Shown piece by piece: positions 3,628 to 38,885 of a stretch of 45,712 bases of DNA. Position numbers and translations under genes: made by a program. Each line of letters starts with the position of its first letter. Position 1 is the stretch's first letter. Source of the DNA: a virus (taxonomy: Duplodnaviria > Caudoviricetes). A model generated the notes under the pieces. It did no database searches. It was not told the DNA's origin and saw only the letters and a program-made list of their open reading frames with translations. The stretch is taken from positions 1 to 45,712 of the IMG/VR virus record IMGVR_UViG_3300008085_000051. One strand, 5' to 3'.

Positions 3628-4005
3628 ATGGAAAAAGGACAAGAAAGAATTATTGAAGTGGCTAAGAATCATTTAGATAATCTAAAAGATAAACAAAAGA
3701 TTCTAAAAAACAGGTTAGAATATATTAAATTGATAGATGATGTTCAATTTATGCCAAATAATCCTTCTAGAAAATTTGAAGAAGATGCTAATTATGTTAT
3801 GACTGAGAGGGATTTATACTTGAACTCGTTAGAAACTGAGATTAACAAAATGGATGGACAAATTGAAGGTCAAGAAGAATTAATCTTTAAATTAAGTGAA
3901 GAGGGTATGAAACAATATGAAGAAGGACTTAAAAGAGAAAAAGAATACAACGACTTAGAATATAAAGTCCAAGAACTAGAACTAAAACTACAACAAAAAG
4001 AATAA
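3628..4005 (+). CDS. Hypothetical coiled-coil protein
   Basis: 125-aa E/K-rich ORF in the head operon. Confidence 0.75.
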   Translation: MEKGQERIIEVAKNHLDNLKDKQKILKNRLEYIKLIDDVQFMPNNPSRKFEEDANYVMTERDLYLNSLETEINKMDGQIEGQEELIFKLSEEGMKQYEEGLKREKEYNDLEYKVQELELKLQQKE

Positions 4006-4008
4006 ATA

Positions 4009-4254
4009 ATGGTATTTCAAAAAGGACATAAAAAAAAATCTAAAACTGTAGAAGAATTAGATAATAAAGAACAATATGGTTTAATTGAAGATGAATCTAA
4101 ATTAAATGAAGATGAATACATCAATAAAGTAATGAAAGCTTTAGGTTATGAGAAAAAAAGGGCAATGAATTATAATTATTATATTAAATCAGGTATGAAA
4201 GTACAAAGTTTATTCAAAGAAAAAGAATTAAAAGAGATATTTAAAAATGAGTGA
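4009..4254 (+). CDS. Hypothetical protein
   Basis: 81-aa ORF, N-terminal FQKGH, tightly packed with neighbours. Confidence 0.7.
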   Translation: MVFQKGHKKKSKTVEELDNKEQYGLIEDESKLNEDEYINKVMKALGYEKKRAMNYNYYIKSGMKVQSLFKEKELKEIFKNE

Positions 4255-4636
4255 AGAAAAAATTGATATTACAAAACAAGCAGAAGATTTAGCAAACGAG
4301 AAATTAGCAAAACTTAACCAAGAAAAAGAATTAAGTAAGGTATCTGACCTTGAAGCTAAATTAGCCGAATATCAAAAGAAAGAACAAGAAGCCTTAGCCT
4401 TAGAAGAAGAGAAAAAGAAATCTGAAATTTCTAAAAGACTAGAAGAACTAGAAAAAGCTAGAGAAGAAGATAAAAAGTCTTATGAAGATAAATTAGAGAA
4501 ATTATCTACTAGACAGTCTTCAGGTAAGGTTAAAACTGACCCTAAGGAAGCTTTGACTAGAGAAGAATACGAAGCAAACAAATCACAGTACAATCAAATA
4601 TTAGCTAAACATATATTGGAGAATAAAACTCTTTAA
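4247..4636 (+). CDS. Probable capsid scaffolding protein
   Basis: Charged coiled-coil ORF immediately upstream of the capsid gene. Confidence 0.6.
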   Translation: MSEEKIDITKQAEDLANEKLAKLNQEKELSKVSDLEAKLAEYQKKEQEALALEEEKKKSEISKRLEELEKAREEDKKSYEDKLEKLSTRQSSGKVKTDPKEALTREEYEANKSQYNQILAKHILENKTL

Positions 4637-4690
4637 TATTTTATTTTTTAACAAAAAACTCAAGTTATATTCATTTATTCTAAAAACAAC

Positions 4691-4705
4691 CGAAAGATTT
4701 ATAAA
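4691..4705 (+). promoter_or_regulatory. BRE+TATA promoter of the capsid gene
   Basis: cgaaagaTTTATAAA. Confidence 0.8.
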
Positions 4706-4762
4706 CTAAATGTGTTAATAAGTTATTCTTATGTTAGGGGCGCCCTGACTGACTTATAACAA

Positions 4763-5641
4763 ATGGCTATAACAAACGCAAACACAATTAAACCTGGTGA
4801 TTCAACAATCATCGCAGCAATTAGAGAATATTTCCAAGAAGATATTCAAAAAAAAGTATATGAAGCATCTATTTCTAGGAATTTACCTGGTGCAGTTACA
4901 ATTGTAGCAAATTACGCACAAGGTGTAGCAGATAGATACCAATGGACAAAATCAAGTGGTATTACTACAACAGCAACTGATAGATATGATATTGCAAGTA
5001 CAGATTTAAAACTACCTGTAGTTGAGTACGCAGTAACAAAAGATTATGTTGATGCAACTTTCAAAGGTGGAGTAGTATCTGAGAGAGAAGATGTAATGAT
5101 GGACCAAGAAGCTTACATTATGGGCGATATTCAAGAATCTCTAGTTAATGATTTAGCTAAAAAAGAGAACGAATTATTCGCAACAGTAGTATTAGCAGGT
5201 ACAGCAGTTACAGGTTCCACTTCAACTGTAGATTTAACAGTAACTTCAAGTAGATTTGGTGTAACTCAAATGAGAGCTGCAACAGCAGACCGAGGTACTT
5301 GTAGATATATTATAATGCATCCAAACATGACACAAGGTCTAGCGGATTTCATGAGTGACGCATCCAAAGCAGGAGACAACAGATTCTTAAGAGAAAATGT
5401 AGTTGGTATGTTACATGGAGCTAATGTTGTTCAATCTACATACGTTACAGATGGTAAAGTAGTTTACTTAGGTGACGATGCAGTAGTATTATTCGAAAGA
5501 AAACCTTACACATTAGCAGTTGCACAAGACCAAATTGACGACTTATTTTACAAGTTCGCTATCAAAGCAAGATTTGGTATGAAAATCAAAAGAGCTAACA
5601 GATGTTTAGTTGGAACTTTTGCTACAGAGATTATTTCATAA
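4763..5641 (+). CDS. Major capsid protein (HK97 fold)
   Basis: 292 aa; YIIMHP, VGMLHGANVVQS, ARFGMK pattern; position; biased codon usage suggesting high expression. Confidence 0.88.
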   Translation: MAITNANTIKPGDSTIIAAIREYFQEDIQKKVYEASISRNLPGAVTIVANYAQGVADRYQWTKSSGITTTATDRYDIASTDLKLPVVEYAVTKDYVDATFKGGVVSEREDVMMDQEAYIMGDIQESLVNDLAKKENELFATVVLAGTAVTGSTSTVDLTVTSSRFGVTQMRAATADRGTCRYIIMHPNMTQGLADFMSDASKAGDNRFLRENVVGMLHGANVVQSTYVTDGKVVYLGDDAVVLFERKPYTLAVAQDQIDDLFYKFAIKARFGMKIKRANRCLVGTFATEIIS

Positions 5642-5714
5642 ATAATCTTTTAATTTTAAAAAACACATTTTTTCTATTTATTTATAAACTCACTAATTAT
5701 TTTATCAAAAAAAA

Positions 5715-5729
5715 CGATAAGCATATAAA
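5715..5729 (+). promoter_or_regulatory. BRE+TATA-like promoter
   Basis: cgataagcATATAAA; ATG at 5755 at the usual 33-nt spacing. Confidence 0.6.
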
Positions 5730-5754
5730 GATAGAAATACATATATAATAACAA

Positions 5755-6369
5755 ATGGATAAAAAATTTATCGCAGCTGTAGTATTATCATTAATTGGTG
5801 GTGCAACCTTAGGGGCAACTTTGTTCCCTGTAGAAAAAGAAGTAGAAACAATTGTTAATAAGGCAATTGAAGTTCCAGTAATTGAATATCAAGAAATTTT
5901 AGTAGACGTGCCAGTAACTGAATATGTTAATATCACAAAAGAAGTTTTAGTTGATAACGAAAACCTTGATGAAGTATTAAAACATATTTATGACAATGAA
6001 GGTTCAGTAGAATATTTAGTTAACGATTTAGATGATGATGAATTAGATTTAATAGTAGATAGAATTGTATTCAGTAATGAAATTAAAACTTTATCTATCC
6101 AAGCAATTAAGGATGATTTAATTGATGAAATTGATGGTGAAATAGTCAATAGAGTAAAACTTCATGATAGATTAATTGAAAGATTAAAAATTAATGATGA
6201 AGAAGATGAAATTTTAATCAAAACTGTAGATTTTGAAGATAAAGATGCAGAAGTAGAAGTATTAGGTACATTTGAACAAGATGATATTAAATACAATTTT
6301 ACTGCTATTGTAGAGTTCAAAGATGGACTTTATGAAGAGATTAAAAGTTTTGAAGTTACTTTAAACTAA
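5755..6369 (+). CDS. Acidic protein with N-terminal signal/transmembrane anchor
   Basis: MDKKFIAAVVLSLIGGATLGATLFP hydrophobic N-terminus, then a V/E/P-rich stalk and a D/E-rich domain. Confidence 0.8.
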   Translation: MDKKFIAAVVLSLIGGATLGATLFPVEKEVETIVNKAIEVPVIEYQEILVDVPVTEYVNITKEVLVDNENLDEVLKHIYDNEGSVEYLVNDLDDDELDLIVDRIVFSNEIKTLSIQAIKDDLIDEIDGEIVNRVKLHDRLIERLKINDEEDEILIKTVDFEDKDAEVEVLGTFEQDDIKYNFTAIVEFKDGLYEEIKSFEVTLN

Positions 6370-6383
6370 CTTCTTTTTAAAAT

Positions 6384-6398
6384 ACAAACATTTATAAA
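6384..6398 (+). promoter_or_regulatory. BRE+TATA promoter
   Basis: acaaacaTTTATAAA; ATG at 6420 at 29 nt. Confidence 0.7.
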
Positions 6399-6419
6399 CT
6401 TCTAAAGACATAGTATTAT

Positions 6420-8084
6420 ATGGAAACTATAATAGTATCTATGTGTACATATAAATATAATGATTGGATTATTTATTTCTATAATGGAATAAGAAAATAT
6501 AATCCTGATATGAGAATAATAATTTATTTAATAAACTATCCTCCAGAACATGCTAATTTACTTAGATGTTTTTTCTCAGATGTAACTTTCATTGAAAAAA
6601 AAGGTAATTTTAAACTAAAACCTACATATAACGAAATGAAAGAAAAAGAGTGTGTTACCTATCTTAAAGGGACTTTTGTTAGGGAAACAATAGCTCTTAC
6701 AAATAAACCTGTAATGTGGGTAGATATTACTGCTTTAATAAGAACGGACTTAAGTGAGATTAATGATTTATTATTAAAGAATGATATAATTCTTAATAGA
6801 AGAGATTTTACTAAAGATGAAGGGACTAAAGTAATTGCAGCAGAGATATTTGGTATAAGAGATTATAAATTAGCACAATTCTATGAAAAAGAATGTTTAA
6901 AAGATGTAACTAATTGGTATCAAGACCAAACTTCTTTAGCTACATTATTAAGAGTTAAAGATATAAATATAGATTATATTAAATTTGGAGAATATAGTAA
7001 TTTCCATTTTGAATCTAATGCCAAATCTTGGAGTGATAGAGGAAGGACAGGGAATGGAACTTTTAATAAAGATGACAAAGATTATAATTTTGAAATGTAT
7101 TATAAAGATTTAAAATCTGATTACTTTGATAAAGAATTAGATTTATTCAATGATTTATTCAATGAAAATAAACCAAATATTATGTGTTATATTGATGAAG
7201 ATAGGTGGTGTTATTATACTACTGCTATGAAATTATGTAAGTATTTATCTAAAAATTTTTATATAAGTATAGTAAGAAATGTTTATGTTGATAGAAATAT
7301 AGTAGATAATTTCAATGGTGATTTAGTCTGGGCAAGATGTAGCTCACAAAGATTAAAACCTTTACTTAATATTCGTCCCGATTTGAAAGATAAGTTTATA
7401 TCTACGATGACTACGGGAGGAGAGTTATTAGATTCAAGAGTTGAATTACATATAAAAAATGCTTCTGAATCAAAATATATTTTAACTCAAAACTATGAAT
7501 CATATAAAAAGTTATTAGAAACAAATCAAAAACCTATATTAATTCCTAATGGGGTAGAACTTAATAGATTCAAACCTGTAACTCGTGACCCTACAAAAAG
7601 ATTTATAGTAGGTTTTGCTGGAAGACATAACACATCTTTAACAGATATACAAAAAGGATATACTGAGTATTTTGTAACACCTTGTAAAGAATTAAGTTTA
7701 GAAACCAAAGAAGGTAACTCAGGAGTAGGATTTATTCCTCATAGTTATATGTATAAATTTTACAATGATATTGATGTATTGATTCAAGTAAGTTGTAGTG
7801 AAGGTTGTAGTAATACTATAATGGAAGCAATGTCTAGTGGTATTCCTTGCATTATTTCTAGAGTAGGTTATCATGGAGAGAACTGTGAAGATAATCATAA
7901 CGTATTATTTGTAGATAGAGATAAAGAACAAGTTAAAGAAGCTTTAATTAAACTAAAAGATAAAGAGTTTTATGATAAAATATCTAAAAATGCAAGAGAT
8001 TTTGCTGAAAATCACTCTTGGGAGATTATGGCCGATAAATTTAAAGAAACATTCCAACAAATATTAAAAAATGAGATTAAATAA
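6420..8084 (+). CDS. Two-domain glycosyltransferase (GT-A-like N-terminus plus GT4/GT-B C-terminus)
   Basis: VMWVD and WYQDQ in the N-terminal half; IPNGV, GFAGR and SEGCSNTIMEAMSSGIPCI (EX7E) in the C-terminal half. Confidence 0.9.
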   Translation: METIIVSMCTYKYNDWIIYFYNGIRKYNPDMRIIIYLINYPPEHANLLRCFFSDVTFIEKKGNFKLKPTYNEMKEKECVTYLKGTFVRETIALTNKPVMWVDITALIRTDLSEINDLLLKNDIILNRRDFTKDEGTKVIAAEIFGIRDYKLAQFYEKECLKDVTNWYQDQTSLATLLRVKDINIDYIKFGEYSNFHFESNAKSWSDRGRTGNGTFNKDDKDYNFEMYYKDLKSDYFDKELDLFNDLFNENKPNIMCYIDEDRWCYYTTAMKLCKYLSKNFYISIVRNVYVDRNIVDNFNGDLVWARCSSQRLKPLLNIRPDLKDKFISTMTTGGELLDSRVELHIKNASESKYILTQNYESYKKLLETNQKPILIPNGVELNRFKPVTRDPTKRFIVGFAGRHNTSLTDIQKGYTEYFVTPCKELSLETKEGNSGVGFIPHSYMYKFYNDIDVLIQVSCSEGCSNTIMEAMSSGIPCIISRVGYHGENCEDNHNVLFVDRDKEQVKEALIKLKDKEFYDKISKNARDFAENHSWEIMADKFKETFQQILKNEIK

Positions 8085-8694
8085 ACTAAAGATAAATAAA
8101 GAAACTGAGAGATTAATAAGATTACAAAGGACTTCGTTAGGTGAAGATATCTCGGAAGAGTATCTGACTTCTCTAAGACAAGATTATGATTCTATAAAGG
8201 ATTATATAGGTGAACCTAAAAAAGTCTTAGATATTGGCTGTGGGATAGGAGGAATAGGATTATTTTTAGATAACTTAGCAGAAGAGTTTTACTTATTTGA
8301 TAAAACTGGTGAAAATAAAGATTTATATTATGGATATAAACCTGAGGGTTGTTTTTATAACAGTCTTGAATTAGCAGAGAAGTTTTTAAGAGATAATGGT
8401 TTTAAATCTAATTTAACTTTATTAGACTTAAGTGAAGGACAAAATATATCTAATTTAAAAGATATAGATTTAGTTATTAGTTTAATTTCTTGGGGTTTTC
8501 ATTATCCTGTAAAGACTTATTTAAAACAAGTAGATAATTTATTGTCTGAAAATGGAAAAATTATAATTGATTTAAGAAAACTAGCTTTCGACGAGAACCT
8601 AAAAGAATTTATAGACTTAGGTTATACTTATCAAGTTATAAAGGAATACCAAAAACATTATAGAGTTTTATTAACAAAAAGCAAAGATTTATAA
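8071..8694 (+). CDS. Class I SAM-dependent methyltransferase
   Basis: VLDIGCGIGG motif I; DLVISLISWGFH. Confidence 0.9.
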   Translation: MRLNKLKINKETERLIRLQRTSLGEDISEEYLTSLRQDYDSIKDYIGEPKKVLDIGCGIGGIGLFLDNLAEEFYLFDKTGENKDLYYGYKPEGCFYNSLELAEKFLRDNGFKSNLTLLDLSEGQNISNLKDIDLVISLISWGFHYPVKTYLKQVDNLLSENGKIIIDLRKLAFDENLKEFIDLGYTYQVIKEYQKHYRVLLTKSKDL

Positions 8695-8695
8695 A
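8681..8695 (+). promoter_or_regulatory. BRE+TATA promoter of the candidate ncRNA
   Basis: gcaaagaTTTATAAA, overlapping the stop codon of the upstream gene. Confidence 0.75.
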
Positions 8696-8716
8696 TACAA
8701 GAATACATATAGTATT

Positions 8717-9163
8717 ATGGCTGAAAAGGATGTGAATTCATCCCTTGTTTGCTTGGCAATGAAAAGGCACAATTTTAAGTACTGAAAAGTATTTAGGGTT
8801 GGTACCGAGTAATTATGTCCCCTAAGGTGGAGAAAACATCAGGATTGGTCTAATCTTGATGAACTTATGCACTCACACATTAAGTAACAAAATCTAGATA
8901 AAATATAGACAAGCTGTGTGGGTTTATCTAAATCCTTATTGACGAATAAGACAAATTTAGAGATGACTGAATAAGGGTACATATATGAAAGGTTGTAGGT
9001 ATTAAAAGAGTCCTACTAAACGAAGTAAAGCATGAACACCTTTACTTCAAGTGGAGTAGTGCATAAACACACTTAAACTGGTTGCCCAACGTTTGTCTAC
9101 ATTAACGAAAATATTATAAAAATGTGGGAGTCCTCGACATGGCTAATAACTGTCGAACTTTTA
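8717..9163 (+). ncRNA. Candidate large structured ncRNA (about 445 nt), family unknown
   Basis: No ORF of 60 aa or more; own promoter; at least 9 helices including a GAAA tetraloop, a long-range 9-bp pair and a 3' hairpin followed by a T-tract. Confidence 0.7.
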
Positions 9164-9170
9164 TTCTAAA

Positions 9171-9186
9171 CCGAAAGACTTATAAA
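9171..9186 (+). promoter_or_regulatory. BRE+TATA promoter of the neck/tail operon
   Basis: ccgaaagacTTATAAA; ATG at 9212 at 33 nt. Confidence 0.75.
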
Positions 9187-9211
9187 CTAAACTATCACAT
9201 AAGTTTATTCT

Positions 9212-9778
9212 ATGGGAGATTATATAGATTTGGAGTTTTTCCAAAATTATACTAGGACTTTGTATGATGGGACAACTACACCAACATCCACTACTGTTGA
9301 AACTTATATAGATTTATCAGAACAAGAGATAAACGAGACAACAAGGAGAACTTGGGGAGTTACTGTTTATACTAATGAGTTATATGATTTACCTAACCAA
9401 GAGTTATTATTGAAGAATTATCCAGTGTCTTCAGTATCTTCTATCAAACTTTCTGATGATACAGTATTAACAGAAGGAATTGATGAAGATTACATTATAG
9501 ATGGAGATTTTGTATTATTCAATAAAAATAAATACATACCAGATAGAGTTTATGTTACATATACTAAATATAATGAAGTTCGTTCAGCTGTCAAAATGCT
9601 AACAACATTACTTACACTTCAAAAATTAATACAAAGTGAAAGTAGTACTACTGATAACACTGAAAGTATTAGTATAGGCCCTATTTCATTAACAACAGCA
9701 ATAGGTACATCACAAGTAGTAAACTTAGATTATGATATTAATAAATATTGGAAACAACTTAGGAGATTAATAAGATGA
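9212..9778 (+). CDS. Head-tail adaptor (gp6/gp15-like)
   Basis: Position; LLLKNYPVSSVSSI, VYVTY and ESISIGPIS patterns. Confidence 0.7.
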   Translation: MGDYIDLEFFQNYTRTLYDGTTTPTSTTVETYIDLSEQEINETTRRTWGVTVYTNELYDLPNQELLLKNYPVSSVSSIKLSDDTVLTEGIDEDYIIDGDFVLFNKNKYIPDRVYVTYTKYNEVRSAVKMLTTLLTLQKLIQSESSTTDNTESISIGPISLTTAIGTSQVVNLDYDINKYWKQLRRLIR

Positions 9779-10134
9779 GTAAAATTAAAGATAAAATAGA
9801 TAATATCTTACAAACTTATGGTAGTGATGTTACTGTTTTATCTAATGAAATTTATGAAGAACTTGACGAATGGGGAGATGTAGTAGTTACAAGTTCATCA
9901 ATTCGAACAATCAAAGCAGTTAAGGACCAAAATTTATTAAAAAAACTGATCTTAAACTCGACAGGTAGAGTAAATACATCAAGTTCAGTATTGATAGTAA
10001 ATGCTGATGAAGTTTTTGGTGTTAGGGAAGATAAAGTAATATTTGAAAGTCAAACTTATAATATTACTGAAATTAATCCCCTTGAAATCAGTAACAAGAA
10101 ATTAGCACAAATCTTGACCTTAGGTCTTGACTAA
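9775..10134 (+). CDS. Probable head closure (stopper) protein
   Basis: 119 aa; DEWGD and DKVIFESQTYNI pattern; synteny. Confidence 0.6.
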   Translation: MSKIKDKIDNILQTYGSDVTVLSNEIYEELDEWGDVVVTSSSIRTIKAVKDQNLLKKLILNSTGRVNTSSSVLIVNADEVFGVREDKVIFESQTYNITEINPLEISNKKLAQILTLGLD

Positions 10135-10196
10135 GGGTTTGTAATAAAATTACAGATACCTTCTAAGTCCAGAGTGACTATAAAATATAACCTAGA

Positions 10197-10607
10197 ATGG
10201 CAATAAATAACGCAACTATAAGAGCAGACATTTTTAAAGAGTTAAGAGCAGTTATAAAGAATAATATATCTTCAACTGTAAAGGTGACTAATGCTTTTGT
10301 GGATGATATTGCACAATTCCCACAAGTTATAATTCATAGTCCTATTGTCCCTAGAGAAAGACAATCAATGGGAACTGAATCAAAATCATATAATAGAAAT
10401 GGTTCTATAGATATTGAAGTTTATGCTAAAGATACTAAAAGTGCCATATTATTACATGATGAAGTAGAAGAGATTTTATTTAATAATCAAAACTCTATTT
10501 CATTACAAAATATATCTATAGGAGATAGTTCAATGGTTAATATTGATGTTGGTGGTAAAATAGTTAGGGGTTTTGTTATTCCTTTGAATTTTATGTATAG
10601 TAGATGA
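10197..10607 (+). CDS. Probable tail terminator protein
   Basis: FPQVII and IDIEVYA pattern; synteny. Confidence 0.6.
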   Translation: MAINNATIRADIFKELRAVIKNNISSTVKVTNAFVDDIAQFPQVIIHSPIVPRERQSMGTESKSYNRNGSIDIEVYAKDTKSAILLHDEVEEILFNNQNSISLQNISIGDSSMVNIDVGGKIVRGFVIPLNFMYSR

Positions 10608-11044
10608 AAGTTCAATTTAGGTCAGATGGTGCAAAAAGATTTGGCGCACAAAGTAAGAATATTGATTTGGTAAGAAAGAAAGATTTTACAGAAATCATTA
10701 TAAATAAAGCTTATGATTATGCACGAAACTTAGCACCACATGATACTGGAGCATTAAAGAATGCAATACAAAAAATAATTCAAAAAAACTCAGGAAGGGT
10801 TAGGTTAGTACAACCTAGTCACCGTGATGGTCGTAACAGACCATATCACATGTGGTTTCATGGAATTAAAGCTCCAAGTCCTACAGGTAAGAACGGTGCA
10901 GGAAGAGGTTATGACTTAAGGTCAGGCAATAATAGACCAAAATCAGGTATTCCAAATTTCATGGATTTAACTTATGATTATATGGAAAGTCAAACTACGA
11001 AAAGTATACAAGAACAAGTATCGCAAATGTTCAAAAAACAATAA
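10604..11044 (+). CDS. HK97 gp10-like neck protein
   Basis: APHDTGALKNAI matches the P-x-D-T-G-x-L motif; basic protein. Confidence 0.7.
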   Translation: MKVQFRSDGAKRFGAQSKNIDLVRKKDFTEIIINKAYDYARNLAPHDTGALKNAIQKIIQKNSGRVRLVQPSHRDGRNRPYHMWFHGIKAPSPTGKNGAGRGYDLRSGNNRPKSGIPNFMDLTYDYMESQTTKSIQEQVSQMFKKQ

Positions 11045-11055
11045 ACAAATAACAA

Positions 11056-11571
11056 ATGGCAATAGGAGATACATTATCAGGAGATAATACAAAATTATGG
11101 ATTTTACCGGGAGATTCTGATTATTCAGATATTCTTGCAGATACAACATCTAAATACGAAGCAGAAGTAACTAACTGGGACAAATCTGGTGGAGACAACG
11201 ACTTTGACAGTGAAGCAGTATTTAGTGGTTTCATTGATTTAAAGAAACCAAAAGAAGCTATTGAACTTAGTCTAGATATTATATTAAGGCACGGTACTGC
11301 TAAAAGATGGTATGATTTAACTACTACTGGTTTAAAATACTTAGTTGTATTACAAAATTCAGATGATACTAACTATTATTGGGAAGCATATAACAATGCA
11401 AGAGTAATCAATCTTGAATCTGAGTTTAGTGCAGATGATAATTGGAGAGGAACTTTAAGTCTTAAATTATCACCAACTACGGCAGAGGGTTTAACAAATA
11501 TCCAAGTAGGAGAAGATGGTGCAGCTAGTAACTCTATAAATGGAGTACAAGACTGGGCTAGTTTAAGTTAA
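11056..11571 (+). CDS. Probable major tail (tube) protein
   Basis: 171 aa, acidic, S/T/G-rich; lies between neck genes and chaperones/tape measure. Confidence 0.6.
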   Translation: MAIGDTLSGDNTKLWILPGDSDYSDILADTTSKYEAEVTNWDKSGGDNDFDSEAVFSGFIDLKKPKEAIELSLDIILRHGTAKRWYDLTTTGLKYLVVLQNSDDTNYYWEAYNNARVINLESEFSADDNWRGTLSLKLSPTTAEGLTNIQVGEDGAASNSINGVQDWASLS

Positions 11572-11595
11572 TATTAATAACTTATAATTTATAAA

Positions 11596-11904
11596 ATGAA
11601 CGAAGCGGAAAGGAAATTTAAAGAGAAAGGAACAGTGAGTAAGAGATTTAGTCTCCCTTACTTATTTTGGGAAGAATGGGCTAAAGATTGTAAAGAAAAT
11701 CATAACGATACATATTATCTAAAAATGCAATCAGATCATACTTACAAAAAAGACATGCAAGTATTTATAGACTCAATCATTGTAGATATGATAGCGCTGA
11801 AAGGCGACTTACTTGAATTAAAACAAATAGTACAAGAACTAAAACAAAACACAAATAAACAGAGTGAAGTTACTACTCCAAAGGTAACAAAAACATTAGG
11901 ATAA
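11596..11904 (+). CDS. Hypothetical protein
   Basis: 102-aa ORF in the tail operon. Confidence 0.7.
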   Translation: MNEAERKFKEKGTVSKRFSLPYLFWEEWAKDCKENHNDTYYLKMQSDHTYKKDMQVFIDSIIVDMIALKGDLLELKQIVQELKQNTNKQSEVTTPKVTKTLG

Positions 11905-11908
11905 GAAA

Positions 11909-12181
11909 ATGGGAAGATTTAGTAAATTATTACAAAACAAAGGAAAAGAAATCAAGATAGGAGAAGAAGTATTCATCATCAAACCTTTAACAGGAGAATA
12001 CTTAGGCACATTTATGGAAATGGGAGATAATAAAAACGGAATTATTAACGAATTAATATTAACAAGTCTTAACCAAGCAAAACCTGATGAACCTATAACT
12101 ATGGAAGATATTAAAGAATTACCTTTAGGAATCTTGACAAAATTAATGGAAACTATTACTGAAATCAATGAGTTAAAGTAA
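11909..12181 (+). CDS. Probable tail assembly chaperone
   Basis: EIKIGEEVFIIKPLT pattern; upstream of tape measure. Confidence 0.6.
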   Translation: MGRFSKLLQNKGKEIKIGEEVFIIKPLTGEYLGTFMEMGDNKNGIINELILTSLNQAKPDEPITMEDIKELPLGILTKLMETITEINELK

Positions 12182-12187
12182 ACTAAG

Positions 12188-12397
12188 ATGGCTTTTGATT
12201 TCAATAGGTTAATACCTAACGCCGCAAAGAAAAAGCGAGAACAGAGATTTAATAATTTGTTGTATATTGTATTAGTTGAATGGGGGTGGGATTATGAAAC
12301 TTTTTTAAAAACTCCTATACCTATTTTGAATAGATGTTTTCAAGTTCATAACGAAAAAATAAAACAACAAAATAAAAACTCAAAAAAGAAAAGATAA
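12188..12397 (+). CDS. Probable second tail assembly chaperone
   Basis: WGWDYETFLKTP and a basic C-terminus; abuts tape measure gene. Confidence 0.55.
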   Translation: MAFDFNRLIPNAAKKKREQRFNNLLYIVLVEWGWDYETFLKTPIPILNRCFQVHNEKIKQQNKNSKKKR

Positions 12398-13891
12398 ATG
12401 GCAGATACAACAAACACAATAACAAACCAAATAGCAGTTCGAGGAGATAAAGAACTTGACAGTTTGAATAACAAATATAAAAGACTTGAAAAGAGTTTAT
12501 TATCTCTGAGAAGAGAAGCTGCTAAAAATAAAAAATTATTTGATAAAACCCAAGAAGTTAAAGTAGCAAAACAAAATATAGTTAATAGACAAAAAGAGTT
12601 AGTCTTAATGAAACAAAGAAATATAGAACAAAGTAGATTTGCTAGTTGGTTGAGGAAAGGTCAAGATGCACAGATTGGGTTTAATGGTTCAGCTTTAAGT
12701 ACTTTGTTTTTTGGTATGGCTATAAAGAATACCTTTGAGGGTGCTTTAAAGAGTATATTTGGAGGTTATAAAAAGATTATCCCTGCTTCTAGTGAGTTTA
12801 ATAAAAGTACAACCAGACTTAGTGCAAATTGGGAGTTCTTTAAATTTCAATTAGCTGATGCTTTAACCCAAAGCCCTTTATTTCAAAAGTTTATAGGTTA
12901 TACTATAGAATTAGTTCAATCTTTTCAAAAACTACCTACAGCTATGAAAGAAGGTATAGTTTGGGCTATGGTATTAGGTGCAGTATTAGGTTCATTTTTA
13001 CTAGTAAAATCTGTCGTTAGATTAGGTTTAGCTGGAATTACAAATGAGATGGGTACTTTTGCACTTAAAATAAAAGATGCAACTACTAAATCTGATGACT
13101 TAGGTAAATCTTTGAGTAAAATTAAAGAAGGGGGATTAGAGGTAAAAATTAAAATGCCTGAGATACCTAAAAAATTAGACGATTTAATTATAAACTCTGA
13201 TGGAACTATTAGTACTAAAGGGACATCATTTATAGATAAAGTTAAAAATAAATTTTCTAAATATTTAGATGATTTTGATATTAATGTAGATGGCATAAAA
13301 AACTTTTTTGAGAAGTTATTACCTACAAAAGTAATAGTATTTGGAAAAACATTTTTAAAAGTTTTGGGTAAATGGTTTATATTTATAGATGTTTTTATTG
13401 CTGGATTTGAAGCGTGGGGTAAAGTAAACGAGACTGAGTGGACTAATACTACTGCAAAGATATTTACATTGTTAGCAACAACAGCTACAACTTTTACAAA
13501 AAATATATTAAAATTTGTAAATATGGTTGTTATGGGGGTTACGGATATGATAACTGGTTTTTTAGCAGATATAGGAGATATGTTTGGTTTTGATTTGAGT
13601 TTTTTAAAAATAGATTTCTCAAAAACTTTTGATAATATAATTGATAATGTTTTTAATGGACTTAATGATGAAATTATTAGATATACTTCAGGTCAAGCAA
13701 TAACTGATGCAATAAAAGCCGCAGATACATATATTGAAGATGCTAGAGGTGAGACACAAGCACCCTCTGCCCCACAATATAATTTTGTAGTAGTTGAAGG
13801 TTGGAATGAAGGAGTTTCTACAGGGCAAGTTCCAGAAGATGCATTTTCAGCCTATAATATTATGAAAGGAATTCATACACCAATTAATTAA
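12398..13891 (+). CDS. Tape measure protein
   Basis: 497 aa, helical, with hydrophobic segments; canonical position. Confidence 0.75.
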   Translation: MADTTNTITNQIAVRGDKELDSLNNKYKRLEKSLLSLRREAAKNKKLFDKTQEVKVAKQNIVNRQKELVLMKQRNIEQSRFASWLRKGQDAQIGFNGSALSTLFFGMAIKNTFEGALKSIFGGYKKIIPASSEFNKSTTRLSANWEFFKFQLADALTQSPLFQKFIGYTIELVQSFQKLPTAMKEGIVWAMVLGAVLGSFLLVKSVVRLGLAGITNEMGTFALKIKDATTKSDDLGKSLSKIKEGGLEVKIKMPEIPKKLDDLIINSDGTISTKGTSFIDKVKNKFSKYLDDFDINVDGIKNFFEKLLPTKVIVFGKTFLKVLGKWFIFIDVFIAGFEAWGKVNETEWTNTTAKIFTLLATTATTFTKNILKFVNMVVMGVTDMITGFLADIGDMFGFDLSFLKIDFSKTFDNIIDNVFNGLNDEIIRYTSGQAITDAIKAADTYIEDARGETQAPSAPQYNFVVVEGWNEGVSTGQVPEDAFSAYNIMKGIHTPIN

Positions 13892-13893
13892 AT

Positions 13894-14343
13894 ATGGAAA
13901 GTTTACAAATAATAGATACAGGAATGGAAGAGAAGGGTGGAAGTGTGATTTACACTAAAGCTCACACAGATTGGATTACTTTAGATGCTAGAACACTCAC
14001 ACCAGAGATTGACTTTATATCTAATAATAACCAAACAAAAAGATTTAATGATGCTAAAACTCAACTTACTTTTGTGAGTAATAGAATACAAAGTATGACT
14101 TCACCAAGATTTACAATTCAATGTAGATTCAATACAGAAGATTTAACTGATTATCAAAGAGTATTGTTGATGGGACAGACTTTAGGATTAAAGAAAATAA
14201 AAGGTGGGATGGGTACTTTAAGTTCTATCTCAGGTAATGAATTAGGGGAAGTTTATGTTATTATCAAAAGTTTCAGAAATAATGAGAACTTAACTACTGC
14301 TACAAACATGATAAGTTGTACATTAGTATTGGAGATGGTTTAA
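13894..14343 (+). CDS. Probable distal tail protein
   Basis: Directly follows tape measure. Confidence 0.5.
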   Translation: MESLQIIDTGMEEKGGSVIYTKAHTDWITLDARTLTPEIDFISNNNQTKRFNDAKTQLTFVSNRIQSMTSPRFTIQCRFNTEDLTDYQRVLLMGQTLGLKKIKGGMGTLSSISGNELGEVYVIIKSFRNNENLTTATNMISCTLVLEMV

Positions 14344-21791: not shown

Positions 21792-22604
21792 ATGGTTGAT
21801 GAAACTAAAAAGCTAAATTCTAAACTAGAAGAAAAACTATTGATGTTATCAAATAGTGAACAACAAAGCCTATTAAAACAAATGGTTGGTGTTGATACAA
21901 GTATTGTGCCTACACATAAACACGAATTTTCAGGAAAGAATGCTAGAATAGGTGTGATTTCTGATACACATATAGGTTCTAAATATTTTAATCAAGAATT
22001 ATTTGATAGAATTATTAAGTATTTTGAGAAAAAGAAAGTTGATGCTATATATCATGCAGGAGATATTCTTGAGGGTATGAGTGGTAGACCTGGACACATC
22101 TATGAATTAGATGCAATAGGTTTATCGGCACAATTAGATTTAGCTACTAAAATATTTAAACAAACCAGTTTACCTATTTATGGAATTACAGGTAATCATG
22201 ATGATTGGTTTAGACAAAAAGCAGACATTGGTGCAGATGTGGGTGAAATGTTAGAACAAAGAATATCTAATTTTAAACATTTAGGATTAAATGAAGCTGA
22301 CGTTATATTAAATGGACATAAAATTAAATTAATGCACCCAGGTAAAGGTACGGCTTATGCTATAAGTTATCAAGGGCAGAAGTTAGTTGAATCTTTTGAT
22401 ACAACAGATAAACCTGATATTGTTTTAAATGGACATTATCATAAAGCTTTGTTCATGAATTTAAGGGATATTAATTATTTTGAAGCTGGAACATTACAAA
22501 ATCAATCAGGTTGGATGAGAAGTAAAAACATTCCAGCCCACACGGGTGCGTGGTTATTAGATTTATATAGAGATAAGAGGATAGGTGTAGAGTTTATTAA
22601 GTAA
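21792..22604 (+). CDS. Calcineurin-like metallophosphoesterase
   Basis: SDTH, AGD, GNHD, HPG and GHYH motifs; TTTATAAA at 21759 is 33 nt upstream. Confidence 0.92.
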   Translation: MVDETKKLNSKLEEKLLMLSNSEQQSLLKQMVGVDTSIVPTHKHEFSGKNARIGVISDTHIGSKYFNQELFDRIIKYFEKKKVDAIYHAGDILEGMSGRPGHIYELDAIGLSAQLDLATKIFKQTSLPIYGITGNHDDWFRQKADIGADVGEMLEQRISNFKHLGLNEADVILNGHKIKLMHPGKGTAYAISYQGQKLVESFDTTDKPDIVLNGHYHKALFMNLRDINYFEAGTLQNQSGWMRSKNIPAHTGAWLLDLYRDKRIGVEFIK

Positions 22605-22624: not shown

Positions 22625-23005
22625 TTATTTTGAGACTTTTTTCATTTTGTGAGTATTAGGATTACTTTGTATATAAAGTCTATCAGATTCTTCTAATTTC
22701 TCACAAGCAACACACCCAACAGTGTGATAATAATGTTCTCCAAAATCAGAGTTATCCATTTTAGGACAAATACAATTAGGTAATAACCAAGATTGATGTT
22801 TAAGTTTATTTAATTTAAATTTCCAAAGACCTTGTAAAACATAATTTATATCTCTCCATTTGTAAAGTAAATCTAAATATTCTTTTGAATTTATATCTGT
22901 TGCTTTTAATAAATCTATTATTTCATCTCTTTTTTTATGTAAAGACTTAATGTTAATTATTGCAACTTTTTTAAGTCCTTGTTTTTTAGCTAATTGTAAG
23001 TTCAT
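22625..23005 (-). CDS. Hypothetical Cys/His-rich protein
   Basis: CICPKMDN...CVAC; overlaps the ligase stop (ATGA). Confidence 0.75.
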   Translation of the reverse strand: MNLQLAKKQGLKKVAIINIKSLHKKRDEIIDLLKATDINSKEYLDLLYKWRDINYVLQGLWKFKLNKLKHQSWLLPNCICPKMDNSDFGEHYYHTVGCVACEKLEESDRLYIQSNPNTHKMKKVSK

Positions 23006-24921
23006 AGTATACCCTCTTGACTTAATTGTAATTTTATTAACCTTTCACATTCTTTTCGTATTGTTTGTAAATTAGGGTTTTGTTTCTTTAAAAGTTTTTT
23101 GAATTCTTCAGTACAAATATCATAACACACATTATAACTTAAAATTGGTATCCATCCAGGTTTAACTGTATCATTCTTGGCATTCTCTAATTGTTTAATA
23201 TGTTTATTAATTCTTGCTTGGTTACAGAACTTATGAGCAAATCCTGACTCAAAATCATTAATTTCACCAAATACTTCTTTATTCTCTTCTTTGAATTTCT
23301 CTGTGACTATCTTGGCTACGTGCCTATTTCCAAAACTATCTCTGCTAAATTCAAAAGGTTTTATTACAACACCTTCTGCTTGAAAGTTCCCATATTTACT
23401 ATTTGGTATTTCTTGATTCCAGCATTTATAATAACCTTGAAAAATAATAGGTGCTAATTCGCAACCTAAATGTTTAGATATCTCTTGAATAACATTAATA
23501 AATAAATATTTATCTTCTTCAATATCATAAATATCAATTAGTATTGCTTTTGGGTGTTTATCAAAGTCATAAGGTAAAGTGTGTTTCATCATACCCTCAA
23601 AATAATAAATATTCCCTTTAACAAAGAAACAAGTATTTAAAGATTTTATGTATTCGACTACTTCTGTAAAGTTTCCATAACTACAATTAGGATCTGATTC
23701 AGGTAAAAACTCTACAGTTCTACTACCAAACCTAAGTTCGTTATTTTCATCTCTCCAAACTCTGAAATTAGAATTATGGACTTGGACGCCTTTTACAAAA
23801 TAGTTATGATTGTCTGCAACTTCTAAATCATATCTTGGGCTTTTTTTATTATTTATCTTTTTGATAGAAATTATTTTACATACTTTAGGTAATATTTCAC
23901 AATCTAAACTTAATATTTCTTTATGATATTCAATAGGTATTTTATATTTCATTGAATCTATGATATAATCATTAATTATTTCAAATAATTTTTTTGTTCC
24001 ATTTTTTGTTAAATCAATTTGCCAACCTTTATAATTATGCTGTGTTGATTCTATATTATATTTATGTAATAAAACTTCTCTTAAGATGAAAACTTCGTGT
24101 TCAGTAAATCCTTGTGTATGAAATTTAGCTCTAGGTTTTTGAGTATCACTAAATCCTGTACTTCCATCATCCATAAACCAAACTGCTAGTGCTAATGGAG
24201 TTAAATACTCTTCTACTCCAACATTCGGGATTTTTTTCTTACCATTTTTATACATAAATTCAAATTCTTTAAAAACCTCATTACTTTTACTATGTATTCT
24301 ATATTTTTCAGTGAAATTATATTCTTTTGAATATTGTGATTTATAATATTCTTCATAGTCACATAATTCACCTAAAATATCTTTTTTCCATTTAAGATAT
24401 TTTTCTTGTTTAATTGAATGTGTTTCTGAAAACATTGGATTACAAGATTTATTCATATTTCTAAATGAACCATCTCCCAATATACTCCCAAATAAAATAC
24501 TTTTTTGAGTATCATTCAAATTTATTTTATTAGAGATTAATTTATCATTATGGTTTAAATCTTTAACCTGTTTTATTCCATTATTTGTAAAAACATTATG
24601 ATTATCTGTAACAATCAAATATCTTTCTTTACCAAAATAATCATATTTTAGTTTAACCCAGTTATCAGAAGGGGTGTGTTTATAATATTGTGTTATTGGT
24701 TTAAAAGATTTATTTCCATTTTCATCCATAGATAACGCCTTTACATCCATCTTACCATTCACTATTCTACCTATTGCAATCATACCTTTATCTGTTTGAA
24801 CTTTCATACCATAATCAAAACAACCATCTATTTTCTCTGGAATATATACTATTTCATCATCTTTAAATGTAGAACCTTCATCTTTATTAATTCTCCTTAT
24901 TTTATCAAATTTATGTACCAT
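23002..24921 (-). CDS. ATP-dependent RNA ligase (Rnl2-like) containing an intein
   Basis: Spliced motif I EKIDG|SNFR; FGSR; YFEG; IDI; AEGVVIKP; AKIVTEKFKE. Confidence 0.88.
   Translation of the reverse strand: MVHKFDKIRRINKDEGSTFKDDEIVYIPEKIDGCFDYGMKVQTDKGMIAIGRIVNGKMDVKALSMDENGNKSFKPITQYYKHTPSDNWVKLKYDYFGKERYLIVTDNHNVFTNNGIKQVKDLNHNDKLISNKINLNDTQKSILFGSILGDGSFRNMNKSCNPMFSETHSIKQEKYLKWKKDILGELCDYEEYYKSQYSKEYNFTEKYRIHSKSNEVFKEFEFMYKNGKKKIPNVGVEEYLTPLALAVWFMDDGSTGFSDTQKPRAKFHTQGFTEHEVFILREVLLHKYNIESTQHNYKGWQIDLTKNGTKKLFEIINDYIIDSMKYKIPIEYHKEILSLDCEILPKVCKIISIKKINNKKSPRYDLEVADNHNYFVKGVQVHNSNFRVWRDENNELRFGSRTVEFLPESDPNCSYGNFTEVVEYIKSLNTCFFVKGNIYYFEGMMKHTLPYDFDKHPKAILIDIYDIEEDKYLFINVIQEISKHLGCELAPIIFQGYYKCWNQEIPNSKYGNFQAEGVVIKPFEFSRDSFGNRHVAKIVTEKFKEENKEVFGEINDFESGFAHKFCNQARINKHIKQLENAKNDTVKPGWIPILSYNVCYDICTEEFKKLLKKQNPNLQTIRKECERLIKLQLSQEGIL
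23773..24822 (-). mobile_element. Intein (350 aa) with LAGLIDADG homing endonuclease
   Basis: Begins CFD; block B VTDNH; LFGSILGDG and LAVWFMDDG; ends YDLEVADNHNYFVKGVQVHN followed by Ser. Confidence 0.93.
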
Positions 24922-25118: not shown

Positions 25119-25324
25119 ATTTCTTTTAGTTACATAGTTGTTACATATATAACATAGGTATTACTTAAGTACTTATTAAGGAACATAAGTAATACTTATG
25201 TTAAGTTACATAGACATTACTTAGTTATAATATATGTCCCTTTAAAAAGTACCTATGTCATACTTAAGTATTGCCTATGTTACACTTATGTTTTATAGTA
25301 GTATTATATACTAATAGTTTGTAA

Positions 25325-25374
25325 TTTATAAACCTTTTGGTTAAAAAACTCAATCAAATGAAAAGATTTATAAA
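25325..25374. promoter_or_regulatory. Divergent pair of BRE+TATA promoters
   Basis: Minus strand ccaaaaggTTTATAAA (25340-25325); plus strand gaaaagaTTTATAAA (25360-25374), ATG at 25400 at 33 nt. Confidence 0.8.
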
Positions 25375-25399
25375 TACTAGTGTATTAATACTTTGTACA

Positions 25400-29379: not shown

Positions 29380-30081
29380 ATGAAAAAACAAACAATAATG
29401 TTATTTGGTGATTTACATTTCCCTTATAATCATATAGATGCTTTTGATTTTTTAAAGGCAGTAAAGAAAAAATACAAACCTACTGATGTTATTTGTACTG
29501 GGGATTTAATCGATTTTAATAGTATTAATTATCATGAGAAAGACCCAAATAGTATTAGTCAAGAAGAAGAGTTAGAGGAAGCGACTTTATTAATTGAAGA
29601 ATTAGGTAAATTATTTCCAAATTTAGATATTGTTGAAGGTAACCACGACAGACTTCCAATTAGAAAGGCAAAGTCAATAGGTTTACATTCAAGATTTATT
29701 AAAGATAATAAAGAAGTATTTAATATGCCTAAAAATTGGAATTGGTATCACGAAGTTAATAGAACTTTAATTACAGGTCAAAACTTATTAGTAAGACATT
29801 ATCTAACAAAAGAACCATTTAAAACTGCAGAATATTACAACACTTGCTATGTGCAAGGACATTCACACGAAGATTTTAAACTTTGGTGGTTTATGGATAA
29901 AAATAAGAACTATTGGGGGGCTACTATTGGTTGTTTAGTTGATGATAAATCTTTGGCTATGGCATATAATAAAGGTAATTTAAAAAGACCAGAATTAGGT
30001 TGTATGGTTATAGTTGAAGGAGTACCTAAATTAATACCTCTGAGATTAAAAAATAATATTTGGACAGGTGAGTTAGAATGA
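29380..30081 (+). CDS. Calcineurin-like metallophosphoesterase
   Basis: GDLH, TGD, GNHD and QGHSH motifs. Confidence 0.92.
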   Translation: MKKQTIMLFGDLHFPYNHIDAFDFLKAVKKKYKPTDVICTGDLIDFNSINYHEKDPNSISQEEELEEATLLIEELGKLFPNLDIVEGNHDRLPIRKAKSIGLHSRFIKDNKEVFNMPKNWNWYHEVNRTLITGQNLLVRHYLTKEPFKTAEYYNTCYVQGHSHEDFKLWWFMDKNKNYWGATIGCLVDDKSLAMAYNKGNLKRPELGCMVIVEGVPKLIPLRLKNNIWTGELE

Positions 30082-31570: not shown

Positions 31571-32353
31571 ATGGACTTAAAAAAGAAAATAAATGAACTA
31601 ACTGGTTTGGAATACAAATATTGTGACAAACCCCTGAAAGGTGGAGATATACTTGAACCTACAGGAGAATTATTCAAAGATGTGGTGTGTTTAGACTTCA
31701 AGAGTTTCTACCCTAGTATTATTATTAGTCTTGAATTGTTTGGTCATAAAATGAATGAGTTTCTTAAAGAACAAATGAAATTAAAGAATTTGGGAGACAA
31801 AGACGCCAAGTTAATAATGAACAGTATTTATGGTTATTTTAAACACTATGACTATGAAAAAGCATGTATAGTGACTAAATTAGGTAGGGAAACCATAAGA
31901 AACCTTAGAGAGTATCTTAAAGAACAAAATTTTGATATTATTTATAGTCATACTGATAGTGTTATGGTGTCAGATATTAAAGATAAAGATAATTTAATGA
32001 GTTTTGTAGATGTGTTTGTTAAATCTCAGTTTCTTAACTTGACTTTAAATATAGAAAATGAGTTTAAATTTATATATTTCCAAAAAATAGGAGATAATTT
32101 TGCTAAAAATAGATATGTTGGAGTTGATTATAATGATAGATTACATTTAAAAGGTATAACTCTTAATGAAGAAGAAATAAAAATGATAGATTTTATTCAA
32201 TATACATTGTCTAAAGGTAGTAACATTTGCAATACAAAAGAACTACAGCAATACTTAGAAAAATACTACAAATCTAATGAAAAAAAACAAAGGTTTATAA
32301 ATCTAGAATTATTAAATATAATTGACATGGAAAGTCATAAAGTAAATTTTTAA
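31571..32353 (+). CDS. polB: Minimal family B DNA polymerase (no 3'-5' exonuclease domain)
   Basis: KGG, LDFKSFYPSII, KLIMNSIYG, YSHTDS, KNRY and LKG motifs within 260 aa. Confidence 0.9.
   Translation: MDLKKKINELTGLEYKYCDKPLKGGDILEPTGELFKDVVCLDFKSFYPSIIISLELFGHKMNEFLKEQMKLKNLGDKDAKLIMNSIYGYFKHYDYEKACIVTKLGRETIRNLREYLKEQNFDIIYSHTDSVMVSDIKDKDNLMSFVDVFVKSQFLNLTLNIENEFKFIYFQKIGDNFAKNRYVGVDYNDRLHLKGITLNEEEIKMIDFIQYTLSKGSNICNTKELQQYLEKYYKSNEKKQRFINLELLNIIDMESHKVNF
32288..32301 (+). promoter_or_regulatory. BRE+TATA promoter inside the 3' end of polB
   Basis: caaaggTTTATAAA; ATG at 32327 at 33 nt. Confidence 0.65.
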
Positions 32354-36028: not shown

Positions 36029-36402
36029 AACTCATTCAATTAAAAAATAAGGACCTTAAATGGGTTAGAGAGAAATTATTAATAGAACAAGGTTATACTT
36101 GTGCAATATGTGGTTGTGATTTAGAATCTGATGTTAAATCTAACCCTAAAAACATACATATTGACCATGAACATTTTGGTGAACGGAGAGTCAGAGCTGT
36201 GTTATGTAGGAGATGTAATGTTATTGAAGGTAGAGTGTGGAAGTGGTATAATAGATACACTAAAAAAAAATTAAACAATAATAAAGATTATCAAAATATG
36301 CTCAAGGGACTTAATTTTTATTACGATAATCATATAACTCAATTCATACACCCTTTAGCTACAAGAGTTAAAAGAAAGAGAAAGAAAAATGCAAAGAAGT
36401 AA
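36025..36402 (+). CDS. Endonuclease VII-like (Holliday junction resolvase)
   Basis: CAIC, IDHEH and VRAVLCRRCNVIEG motifs. Confidence 0.88.
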   Translation: MKLIQLKNKDLKWVREKLLIEQGYTCAICGCDLESDVKSNPKNIHIDHEHFGERRVRAVLCRRCNVIEGRVWKWYNRYTKKKLNNNKDYQNMLKGLNFYYDNHITQFIHPLATRVKRKRKKNAKK

Positions 36403-38884: not shown

Positions 38885-38885
38885 A
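38871..38885 (+). promoter_or_regulatory. BRE+TATA promoter
   Basis: cgaaagaTTTATAAA overlapping the primase stop; ATG at 38907 at 29 nt. Confidence 0.7.

Follow-up and report, generated by a model that had tools for sequence, protein, structure and literature searches.

A structured non-coding RNA of a probable archaeal virus as a likely divergent relative of an uncatalogued manA-related phage RNA family

The manA RNA (RF01745) is described by Weinberg et al. (2010; PMC2864571) as a riboswitch candidate in cyanophages that often lies in what may be 5' UTRs. In the accessible text of a cryo-EM preprint (bioRxiv 10.64898/2026.07.01.735769), manA RNAs form cages of 8, 10, and 60 subunits via kissing loops, and the cages exhibit a conserved core and a variable periphery. 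Going by the accessible parts of both sources, the element marked 'pseudoknot?' in 2010 probably corresponds to L8-L9 of the preprint. ROOL and GOLLD, as covered in the accessible parts of PMC12286853 and PMC5737381, are large, ornate, and accessory viral RNAs of unknown function that are often found near tRNA islands, and RNA-only oligomers are the leading structural idea for them. The RNA reported in this work shares these characteristics with ROOL and GOLLD but is shorter. Its relatives are likewise found near tRNA genes, whereas the RNA itself has no tRNA neighbour.

The window analysed in this work is a whole virus record of 45,712 bases with direct terminal repeats. The virus encodes a portal, an HK97-type capsid protein, head-tail adaptors, a terminase, an AAA ATPase, and DNA methyltransferases. 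It also encodes a family B polymerase, three metallophosphoesterases (21792-22604, 29380-30081, and 36389-36895), and an RNA ligase (23002-24921, minus strand) that is split by an intein carrying a LAGLIDADG endonuclease. The RNA ligase and the three metallophosphoesterases suggest RNA or nucleotide repair. The family B polymerase match at 31571-32353 covers just 260 amino acids and belongs to a partial or split gene. No tRNA genes were found in the window. At 25119-25380, a strongly self-complementary region (fold z = -3.4/-4.3, 15 shuffles) contains divergent promoters, whose TATA boxes stand back to back at about 25338 and 25361. Long AT-rich, gene-poor stretches with short repeats and without fold signal are located at 41696-42905 and 38885-39375, and they are candidates for a replication origin or terminal region.

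The host is likely archaeal, as judged from the promoter boxes, the scarcity of sigma-70 sites, the polymerase models, and the neighbours of the primase, and the archaeal-virus setting proposed by the first-pass annotation is supported. The TTTATAAA boxes are located 21-25 nt 5' of several start codons (6420, 20928, 21792, and 29380) that have no obvious ribosome-binding site. Sigma-70 sites are rarer in a scan of the window than in shuffles (12 vs 18.3), as would be anticipated for promoters of a non-bacterial type. The polymerase is best matched by the models PRK05761 'DNA-directed DNA polymerase I', which we take to be archaeal. The window also encodes a PriX-like primase with archaeal neighbours.

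The first-pass annotation had proposed a stand-alone, multi-domain RNA of about 445 nt in a large non-coding gap between two promoters. The gap spans 517 bases (8695-9211) from the stop of a methyltransferase-like gene (8694) to the start of an adaptor gene (9212). The two promoters form a 13-nt direct repeat (8683-8695 and 9174-9186). The longest stop-to-stop frame within the gap has 57 codons, and a decayed protein gene is thus not favoured. Every helix that had been listed is found at its place, and the plus-strand RNA with its own promoter is supported by the present analysis. The features are given below, where p denotes pairing probability, and R1 and R2 denote covariance models of the phage RNA family that were built without the window sequence (R1 on the 5' part).

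4763 to 5641: major capsid gene.
8071 to 8694, plus strand: methyltransferase-like gene (open reading frame), the 5' neighbour outside the RNA, whose end overlaps promoter 1.
8683 to 8695, plus strand: promoter 1, of archaeal BRE/TATA type with its box at 8688-8695; 13-nt repeat with promoter 2.
8715 to 9165, plus strand: non-coding RNA gene of about 445 nt, both ends probable, from RNA-library contigs and covariance-model matches.
8715 to 8768, plus strand: outer manA-like head aligned by R1, the weakest part of the model.
8770 to 8801, plus strand: 14-bp hairpin with a GAAA tetraloop cap (p = 0.99); the family has an equivalent GAAA-type hairpin there.
8804 to 8828, plus strand: 5' strand of the long-range arm (partner 8975-8993) and UAAG-GU strand of the inner manA-like loop.
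8837 to 8861, plus strand: hairpin with a near-palindromic loop (p = 0.96), predicted dimerisation site.
8871 to 8923, plus strand: 9-bp stem with a 35-nt loop, aligned by R2 to the family arm bearing the kissing strand (p = 0.20).
8927 to 8961, plus strand: stem with an inner hairpin directly 5' of the conserved UGACUGAAUAA motif, read from the sequence.
8964 to 8993, plus strand: UGACUGAAUAA motif, common to manA, and 3' strand of the long-range arm.
8995 to 9016, plus strand: manA-type terminal hairpin with a 5-bp stem and a 12-nt loop (p = 0.98).
9022 to 9156, plus strand: 3' domain peculiar to the window RNA (hairpins with p = 0.97-0.99).
9159 to 9165, plus strand: T-tract read from the sequence, likely terminator; T-rich tracts also precede promoter 2 in related viruses.
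9174 to 9186, plus strand: promoter 2, for the head-tail adaptor operon.
9212 to 9778, plus strand: head-tail adaptor gene (PHROG 442, E = 1.8e-4), the 3' neighbour outside the RNA.

The gap sequence is present in RNA libraries. A run search with 8200-9800, two thirds of which is coding, returned three RNA-library runs, all of them aquifer metagenomes of one year and perhaps of one campaign. Four contigs from these runs lie within 8731-9099 with 100% identity and a depth of 3-4; they give neither strand nor ends, and library DNA may contribute to them, so that the transcript check suggested earlier is answered for presence only. Flanking genes within 4000-14000, including the capsid gene, returned no contig besides chance pieces of 19-21 nt. 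This lack fits a discrete and abundant RNA, although uncovered parts prove nothing with filtered contigs. No sequence variants among the RNA-library contigs were found at 80% likeness. The transcript would start at about 8712-8718 on the plus strand, and its 3' end would lie at the T-tract.

The plus-strand fold of 8700-9170 is better than all 100 shuffles (z = -3.33), while the minus-strand fold is equalled by one of 100 (z = -2.61). When the genome was scanned roughly, using 12 shuffles for each 447-nt window, the RNA had z = -2.3, and one of 26 other such windows was equal to it. The counts of perfect stems are not above those of shuffles. Fold energy by itself is only moderate evidence for a structured RNA. 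The long-range helix 8865-8873/9058-9066, around which the first-pass annotation had nested the fold, is within chance: a perfect long-range helix of at least 9 bp occurs in 33% of 500 shuffles, and the mean pair probability of this helix is 0.07-0.11. The nesting is replaced by a homology-supported arm (8814-8822/8975-8983) that crosses the helix.

The RNA does not reach the cut-off of any Rfam family, which agrees with the earlier remark that no family was recognised; the other half of that remark is changed by the likely relationship to an uncatalogued manA-related phage family of which the RNA would be a divergent member. The whole window has no Rfam match at E <= 1. The region 8680-9220 has just four matches at E <= 10, which are FuFi-1 (0.027), TeloSII, algC, and manA (1.7). 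The ROOL, GOLLD, and OLE models have no match in either search. Group I and II introns, RNase P, SRP, and tmRNA were rejected since Rfam and ARAGORN returned no match for them and the RNA interrupts no gene. A blastn search of the gap against 50,697 phage records also returned no match.

FuFi-1 (RF02986) has the best Rfam E-value (20.5 bits) and a similar UGCA ... GUAA-AAAU-like stretch. This match was judged to be chance: the cut-off is 59.6 bits, and the window has no GCAG/CUGC-type hairpin upstream of the motif and no terminator directly after it. The joint pattern of FuFi-1 returned at least 119 loci that are mostly true FuFi-1, and none of those listed has a manA-like core. Twelve of the 20 loci scanned are true members with 79-144 bits, having both hairpin and terminator. 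Inspection by eye of the FuFi-1 loci L048-L166 points to covariation between the downstream AAAUUURG and the GCAG/CUGC hairpin loop, which suggests a pseudoknot.

The manA RNA is more similar to the window RNA. Both have a viral carrier, and both have the UGACUGAAUAA strand paired across from UAAG-GU. The conserved GUGACUGAAUAA strand of manA, whose AC is paired to the GU of UAAGGU, is found in the window at 8964-8974 with 8823-8828, with a change of G to A at the first position and p = 0.01 for the GU/AC pair in the thermodynamic ensemble. Both also have a terminal 5-bp hairpin before the closing helix, which is just 3 bp long in the window. However, the match to the manA model in 8680-9220 has 11.6 bits (E = 1.7) against a gathering cut-off of 55.2, and the whole-genome search with this model returned no match. 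The window RNA has about 445 nt and two modules against 192 model positions of manA. The strand order of its best-kept loop is reversed, and the manA order is found only in the weak outer copy (8720-8768). It also differs from manA by the absence of a kissing pair joining the loop of the arm to that of the terminal hairpin, by its own promoter and T-tract or terminator instead of a 5' UTR location, and by its likely archaeal host. Membership of manA was rejected on score, strand order, kissing pair, and location. The RNA would act in the manner of the manA/ROOL/GOLLD class, yet it is no member of manA, ROOL, or GOLLD.

The weak manA alignment of the window pointed to two motifs that were used for pattern scans. 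The first core pattern returned 25 loci: the window itself, seven manA-type RNAs, and 17 loci taken as chance. Of the 20 loci scanned, six scored 52-53 bits as manA-type RNAs and thus fell slightly short of the cut-off. The manA-type loci L017/L018/L024/L032/L035 and L020/L039 (52-53 bits) are located directly 5' of a tRNA gene and not in a 5' UTR, and the L017-type loci lie between two tRNA genes. The second core pattern returned 24 loci: the window itself, three family members (L168, L179, and L184), and 20 loci that were dropped as chance. These 20 look coding, and the two that were checked with R2 (L176 and L178) gave no match. The third pattern returned 11 loci: the window itself, eight family members, one of which repeats L168, and two that were dropped without R1 or R2 match. 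It added L202, L204, and L205, each with an extra 3' domain. The family consists of 16 loci with 11 distinct cores in total.

L168, L179, and L184 are non-coding RNAs with the compact spacing of the window RNA, and they matched 17 named records, which are 15 Prevotella Lak megaphages (MK250015-MK250029) and two copies of a 735-kb phage (LR756501). The family RNA is unannotated and has about 290-330 nt in the Lak loci (L192-L195, L197, L198, L200, and L203) and in L191, L168, L179, and L184. The family loci are mostly located within or adjoining tRNA clusters, and the Lak members have tRNA genes on both flanks. No scanned family member reaches an Rfam cut-off, and the best score is 22 bits for manA. 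BLAST against three records of related loci returned only chance pieces of 14-33 nt, and a plasmid search with L204 returned one chance match of 28 nt. No account of the doubled family was found in the literature searched, including the accessible part of PMC7162821 on huge phages; subscription papers and supplements were largely outside the search.

The family is clearly a structured RNA. The covariation test was performed on eight members, with the window excluded and the structure specified from RNAalifold results. In this test, 98.2% of cells pair, and 26 of the 50 pairs are changed on both sides. None of 500 shuffles reaches this, and slid registers give 27-44%. The covariation counts are inflated by relatedness, since only four of the eight members are not Lak-type. 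The strongly covarying Lak-type RNA is a finding in its own right. Two further motifs were observed around the family loci. A conserved 3' domain of about 170 nt follows the core in L202 (805-985) and its L204/L205 equivalents (columns 330-500 of alignment A7); it has covarying stems, a possible pseudoknot, and no Rfam match. A second short conserved non-coding motif lies between the RNA and the next gene in L168 (about 660-610, minus strand) and L184 (795-840).

The order of manA-type RNA, as in L017, is AC-UGAAUAA, a hairpin, UAAG-GU, further arms, the terminal hairpin, and the closing helix. The outer part of the family keeps this order. R1 aligns the head to the manA-type loci L017 and L020 with 25-26 bits, and R2 aligns the last hairpin of the family to the same two loci. 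The closing helix is in register in L168, L184, L191, and the Lak members and is also seen in L202, L204, and L205. The manA loop recurs inside one long arm of the family with its strands in reversed order, where it closes a second multiloop. The Rfam manA model matches L184 twice, in tandem. A kissing pair of 4-5 bp joins the inner arm to the last hairpin in all nine members, and it varies on one side only. The simplest reading of these alignments, which we consider quite probable, is that one arm of the family's manA fold has received a second manA module in circularly permuted form.

The window RNA keeps the inner loop and the long-range arm of this architecture, together with three of its hairpins (the GAAA-capped, the palindromic, and the last one). 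The stem of the last hairpin (8995-9016) has identical letters in the manA-type loci L017/L020 and in L168. The stem at 8927-8961 matches a covarying family stem by position, the R2 alignment being poor over this stretch, and it may be the capped closing helix of the permuted module. The AGUA/GAA at 8808-8811/8987-8989 presumably resembles a loop E motif. The outer head is weak: it has a 3-bp closing helix with 9017-9019 in register and a GC/GC pair (8720-8721/8767-8768), and its pairing probability is about 0 in the thermodynamic ensemble. The hairpin at 8728-8743, which was the first in the earlier list of helices, is an insertion in this head. The inner helix set has -106.5 kcal/mol, 3.4 over the minimum, and the full nested model has -98.1 kcal/mol, 11.8 over the minimum.

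The window RNA also adds its own 3' domain, which includes a hairpin at 9022-9048 and the last hairpin of the RNA at 9134-9156. Segments of this domain can pair back with 8865-8873 and with 8906-8914; the latter has a second 9-bp match (8906-8914/9091-9099). Both helices connect the 3' domain with strands left single by the homology model, and they may be pseudoknots or may link one copy to another.

The window RNA is probably homologous to the phage family, and we hold this with good confidence from the model matches and alignments. R2 matches 8810-9019 with 32.5 bits (E = 2.5e-8), which is the best match in the genome and is followed by one of 8.3 bits, while the family members score 138-238 bits; this result is partly circular since the members were selected by motifs derived from the window. 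R1, whose 5' part is untouched by the second selecting pattern, has its first match in the genome at 8714-8863 (19.8 bits, E = 0.008 by rough calibration). In a pooled alignment, 8717-8870 scores above each of 500 shuffles and each of the 1,824 genome segments sampled, with a family segment that was chosen after an earlier comparison had been seen. Three pairs adjoining the UAAG/UGAAUAA loop are held in all nine sequences with differing letters, and the GU/AC pair is replaced by CC/GG in L191.

The long-range arm is well supported. It forms eight of nine pairs in the register fixed by the family (8814-8822/8975-8983), and 29 of 45,703 genome 9-mers pair equally, the 9-nt length having been picked after looking. 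The arm is present in the minimum-energy fold with p = 0.74-0.78, and p is 0.62-0.78 for the strand at 8804-8828. Its unanchored duplex energy is unexceptional (261 of 2000 shuffles). The 5' part aligns weakly to individual members, with z = 2.4 for L168 and 0.4 for L184, and a chance match has z = 1.9. The window RNA was not found by sequence-only nhmmer profiles.

The alignment of the middle part is marginal (15 of 500 shuffles). The 3' domain shows no significant likeness to that of L202, L204, and L205, with 311 of 500 shuffles scoring as high; the window and the long-form domain have two short words in common (GGAGUAGU and CCCAACG). No close homologue with the 3' domain of the window (9022-9156) was found. 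The invariant GUGACGUAAGAA stretch of the family is diverged in the window, the inner 5-bp hairpin is deleted, and the kissing pair is lost. The best duplex at the kissing position is 3 bp with -1.2 kcal/mol in the window against 4-5 bp in all nine members, and no complement of the last-hairpin loop is found in the 8871-8923 arm. The window RNA is therefore classified as a divergent relative and not as a full member. Both the family and the window RNA exhibit the same order of a GAAA-capped hairpin, UAAGGU, an A-rich linker, the palindromic hairpin, the arm, the stem, UGACUGAAUAA, the long-range arm, and the last hairpin, with pairing kept through changed letters. They differ in that the window has no tRNA gene in its genome and its 3' domain gives no significant alignment.

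Capsid and adaptor protein scans, used to identify relatives of the virus, returned the virus itself together with six distinct relatives in which sequence is available upstream of the adaptor (L006/L012, L008, L009/L010, L011, L013/L016, and L014). L002 and L015 were excluded as too short or too distant. The closest capsid relatives have 78-85% identity, and the 22 adaptor proteins listed include that of the window. None of the six relatives has the RNA in the slot upstream of the adaptor by BLAST or covariance models. The syntenic homologues that had been recommended for a covariation test are thus without the RNA, and the covarying relatives were found instead in other phages by motif scans. 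In L006/L012, a methyltransferase-like gene is followed by promoter 1, then by a short hairpin and promoter 2. This gene, as read from the sequence, is similar to the 5' neighbour of the RNA in the window, which matches Methyltransf_23 with E = 3e-4, under the cut-off of that model. L006 and L008 have an element similar to promoter 1 in the corresponding position.

In L008 and L014, the two promoters enclose a protein gene, and the remaining relatives have a single promoter. The slot protein of the two distant relatives L008 (3140-3930) and L014 (4170-4960) is acidic, and its N-terminal part contains a hydrophobic stretch. In L009/L010, the gene upstream of the adaptor is apparently a glycosyltransferase that has an intein with a homing endonuclease. 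L013/L016 is a related virus contig binned in a Cloacimonadota genome, and this binning is likely an artefact because of the TATA-type promoter. The slot lacks the RNA in six relatives and has a protein gene in two, which indicates that the RNA is an accessory cassette. Promoter 2 is kept in relatives lacking the RNA, with 90% identity over 51 nt in L009/L010, and is therefore assigned to the adaptor operon. The virion-module position noted by the first-pass annotation is real but looks incidental, since the slot is a variable cassette site.

The hairpin at 8837-8861 is the predicted site of self-association. Its self-duplex is favoured by 12.5 kcal/mol, against 2.0-4.9 kcal/mol for six other hairpins of the RNA. 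The self-duplex of the palindromic hairpin is favoured in all eight family members tested (13.9-20.7 kcal/mol). The loop is a perfect GGCC palindrome in the family and a near-palindrome with wobbles in the window. Self-association of the window RNA is somewhat favoured by these predictions, and a decoy or scaffold role is more tentative.

Taken together, the reading that we prefer, though with no more than even confidence, is an accessory, stand-alone non-coding RNA with a doubled manA fold that forms a self-pairing, RNA-only particle acting as scaffold or decoy. Transcription from promoter 1 would yield a discrete plus-strand RNA that starts at about 8712-8718 and runs to the T-tract. Its fold would be organised around the manA-type loop, and the 8837-8861 hairpin would mediate pairing with other copies. 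The abundant, dispensable, and protein-free particle would then serve during infection as a scaffold or as a decoy against a host RNA-targeting defence. Its role would be neither a switch for the next gene nor a part of the virion. The accessory slot agrees with the scaffold or decoy idea, and the RNA ligase and phosphoesterases of the virus fit such a setting.

The main rival, which we regard as possible but clearly less probable, is an RNA of the same family that acts as a monomer or in an RNA-protein complex without forming RNA-only oligomers. The loss of the manA-type kissing pair in the window agrees with it, the RNA ligase, the three metallophosphoesterases, and the relatives in tRNA clusters point to RNA repair or translation, and OLE works with proteins according to the accessible part of PMC12286853. 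However, the family shows hardly any variation in the self-complementary hairpin loop, this loop keeps its self-pairing in the window, and the RNA has no co-occurring partner gene in the loci seen. It is rather unlikely that the RNA is an orphan class whose motifs are convergent or due to chance and whose correct fold is nested around 8865-8873/9058-9066. The low model score and the weak pairwise alignments would be explained by it, and that nested model has -102.5 kcal/mol, which is better than the full nested homology model. Against it, two models have colinear matches, one of them on an unselected part, pairing is in register through changed letters, and the helix at its centre is within chance while the inner homology set folds better.

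The remaining rivals are improbable. The phi29 prohead RNA is a virion-assembly RNA, and the location between the capsid gene and the adaptor gene together with the predicted self-association would suit a similar role here. The variable slot, which lacks the RNA in all six related viruses, argues against such a packaging RNA. R2 has no match in the incomplete record G001 (31.9 kb), and five family-carrying records, one of them near-complete, have no match to the capsid protein of the window. About the same low probability applies to a role as cis-regulatory leader or riboswitch of the adaptor operon, a type of function originally suggested for manA. The RNA lies 5' of a same-strand gene, and manA is commonly found in potential 5' UTRs in the text of PMC2864571. 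The variable slot argues against a leader as well, and a T-tract and a separate promoter, which is kept in relatives without the RNA, precede the gene, while the Lak members have tRNA genes on both flanks. The least probable reading is one in which the structure is incidental and the region is either an mRNA for a leaderless peptide of 22 codons (8717-8785) or a decayed protein gene. An ATG is present at the probable start, as in the apparently leaderless genes of the virus, but at least 350 further bases would be unexplained, no frame exceeds 57 codons in the gap, and the structure-level homology is to a non-coding family.

Beyond the preferred reading, we tentatively propose a broader one that is more doubtful than the RNA-only particle itself. 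The window RNA would represent the archaeal-virus branch of an undescribed class of 290-480-nt RNAs with a permuted-manA graft. The cassette would have moved between Prevotella megaphages and archaeal viruses, and the RNAs would form RNA-only multimers via the palindromic hairpin. In the window, the new 3' domain would replace the kissing loop by pairing back or across at 8865-8873 and 8906-8914. If this is true, manA would be the small representative of a superfamily of modular, stand-alone RNAs that form cages, and not a riboswitch candidate.

Large viral RNAs, among them ROOL, GOLLD, and manA, form RNA-only cages. The Lak copy is a concrete target for probing and cryo-EM, and natural variants that share the core loop and the palindromic hairpin while differing in the kissing pair would show which contacts matter. 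A doubled manA family in megaphages and in a likely archaeal virus, if true, would illustrate evolution by module duplication. It would also mean that accessory RNA genes cross the domain boundary, and it would argue that manA is not a cis-regulator.
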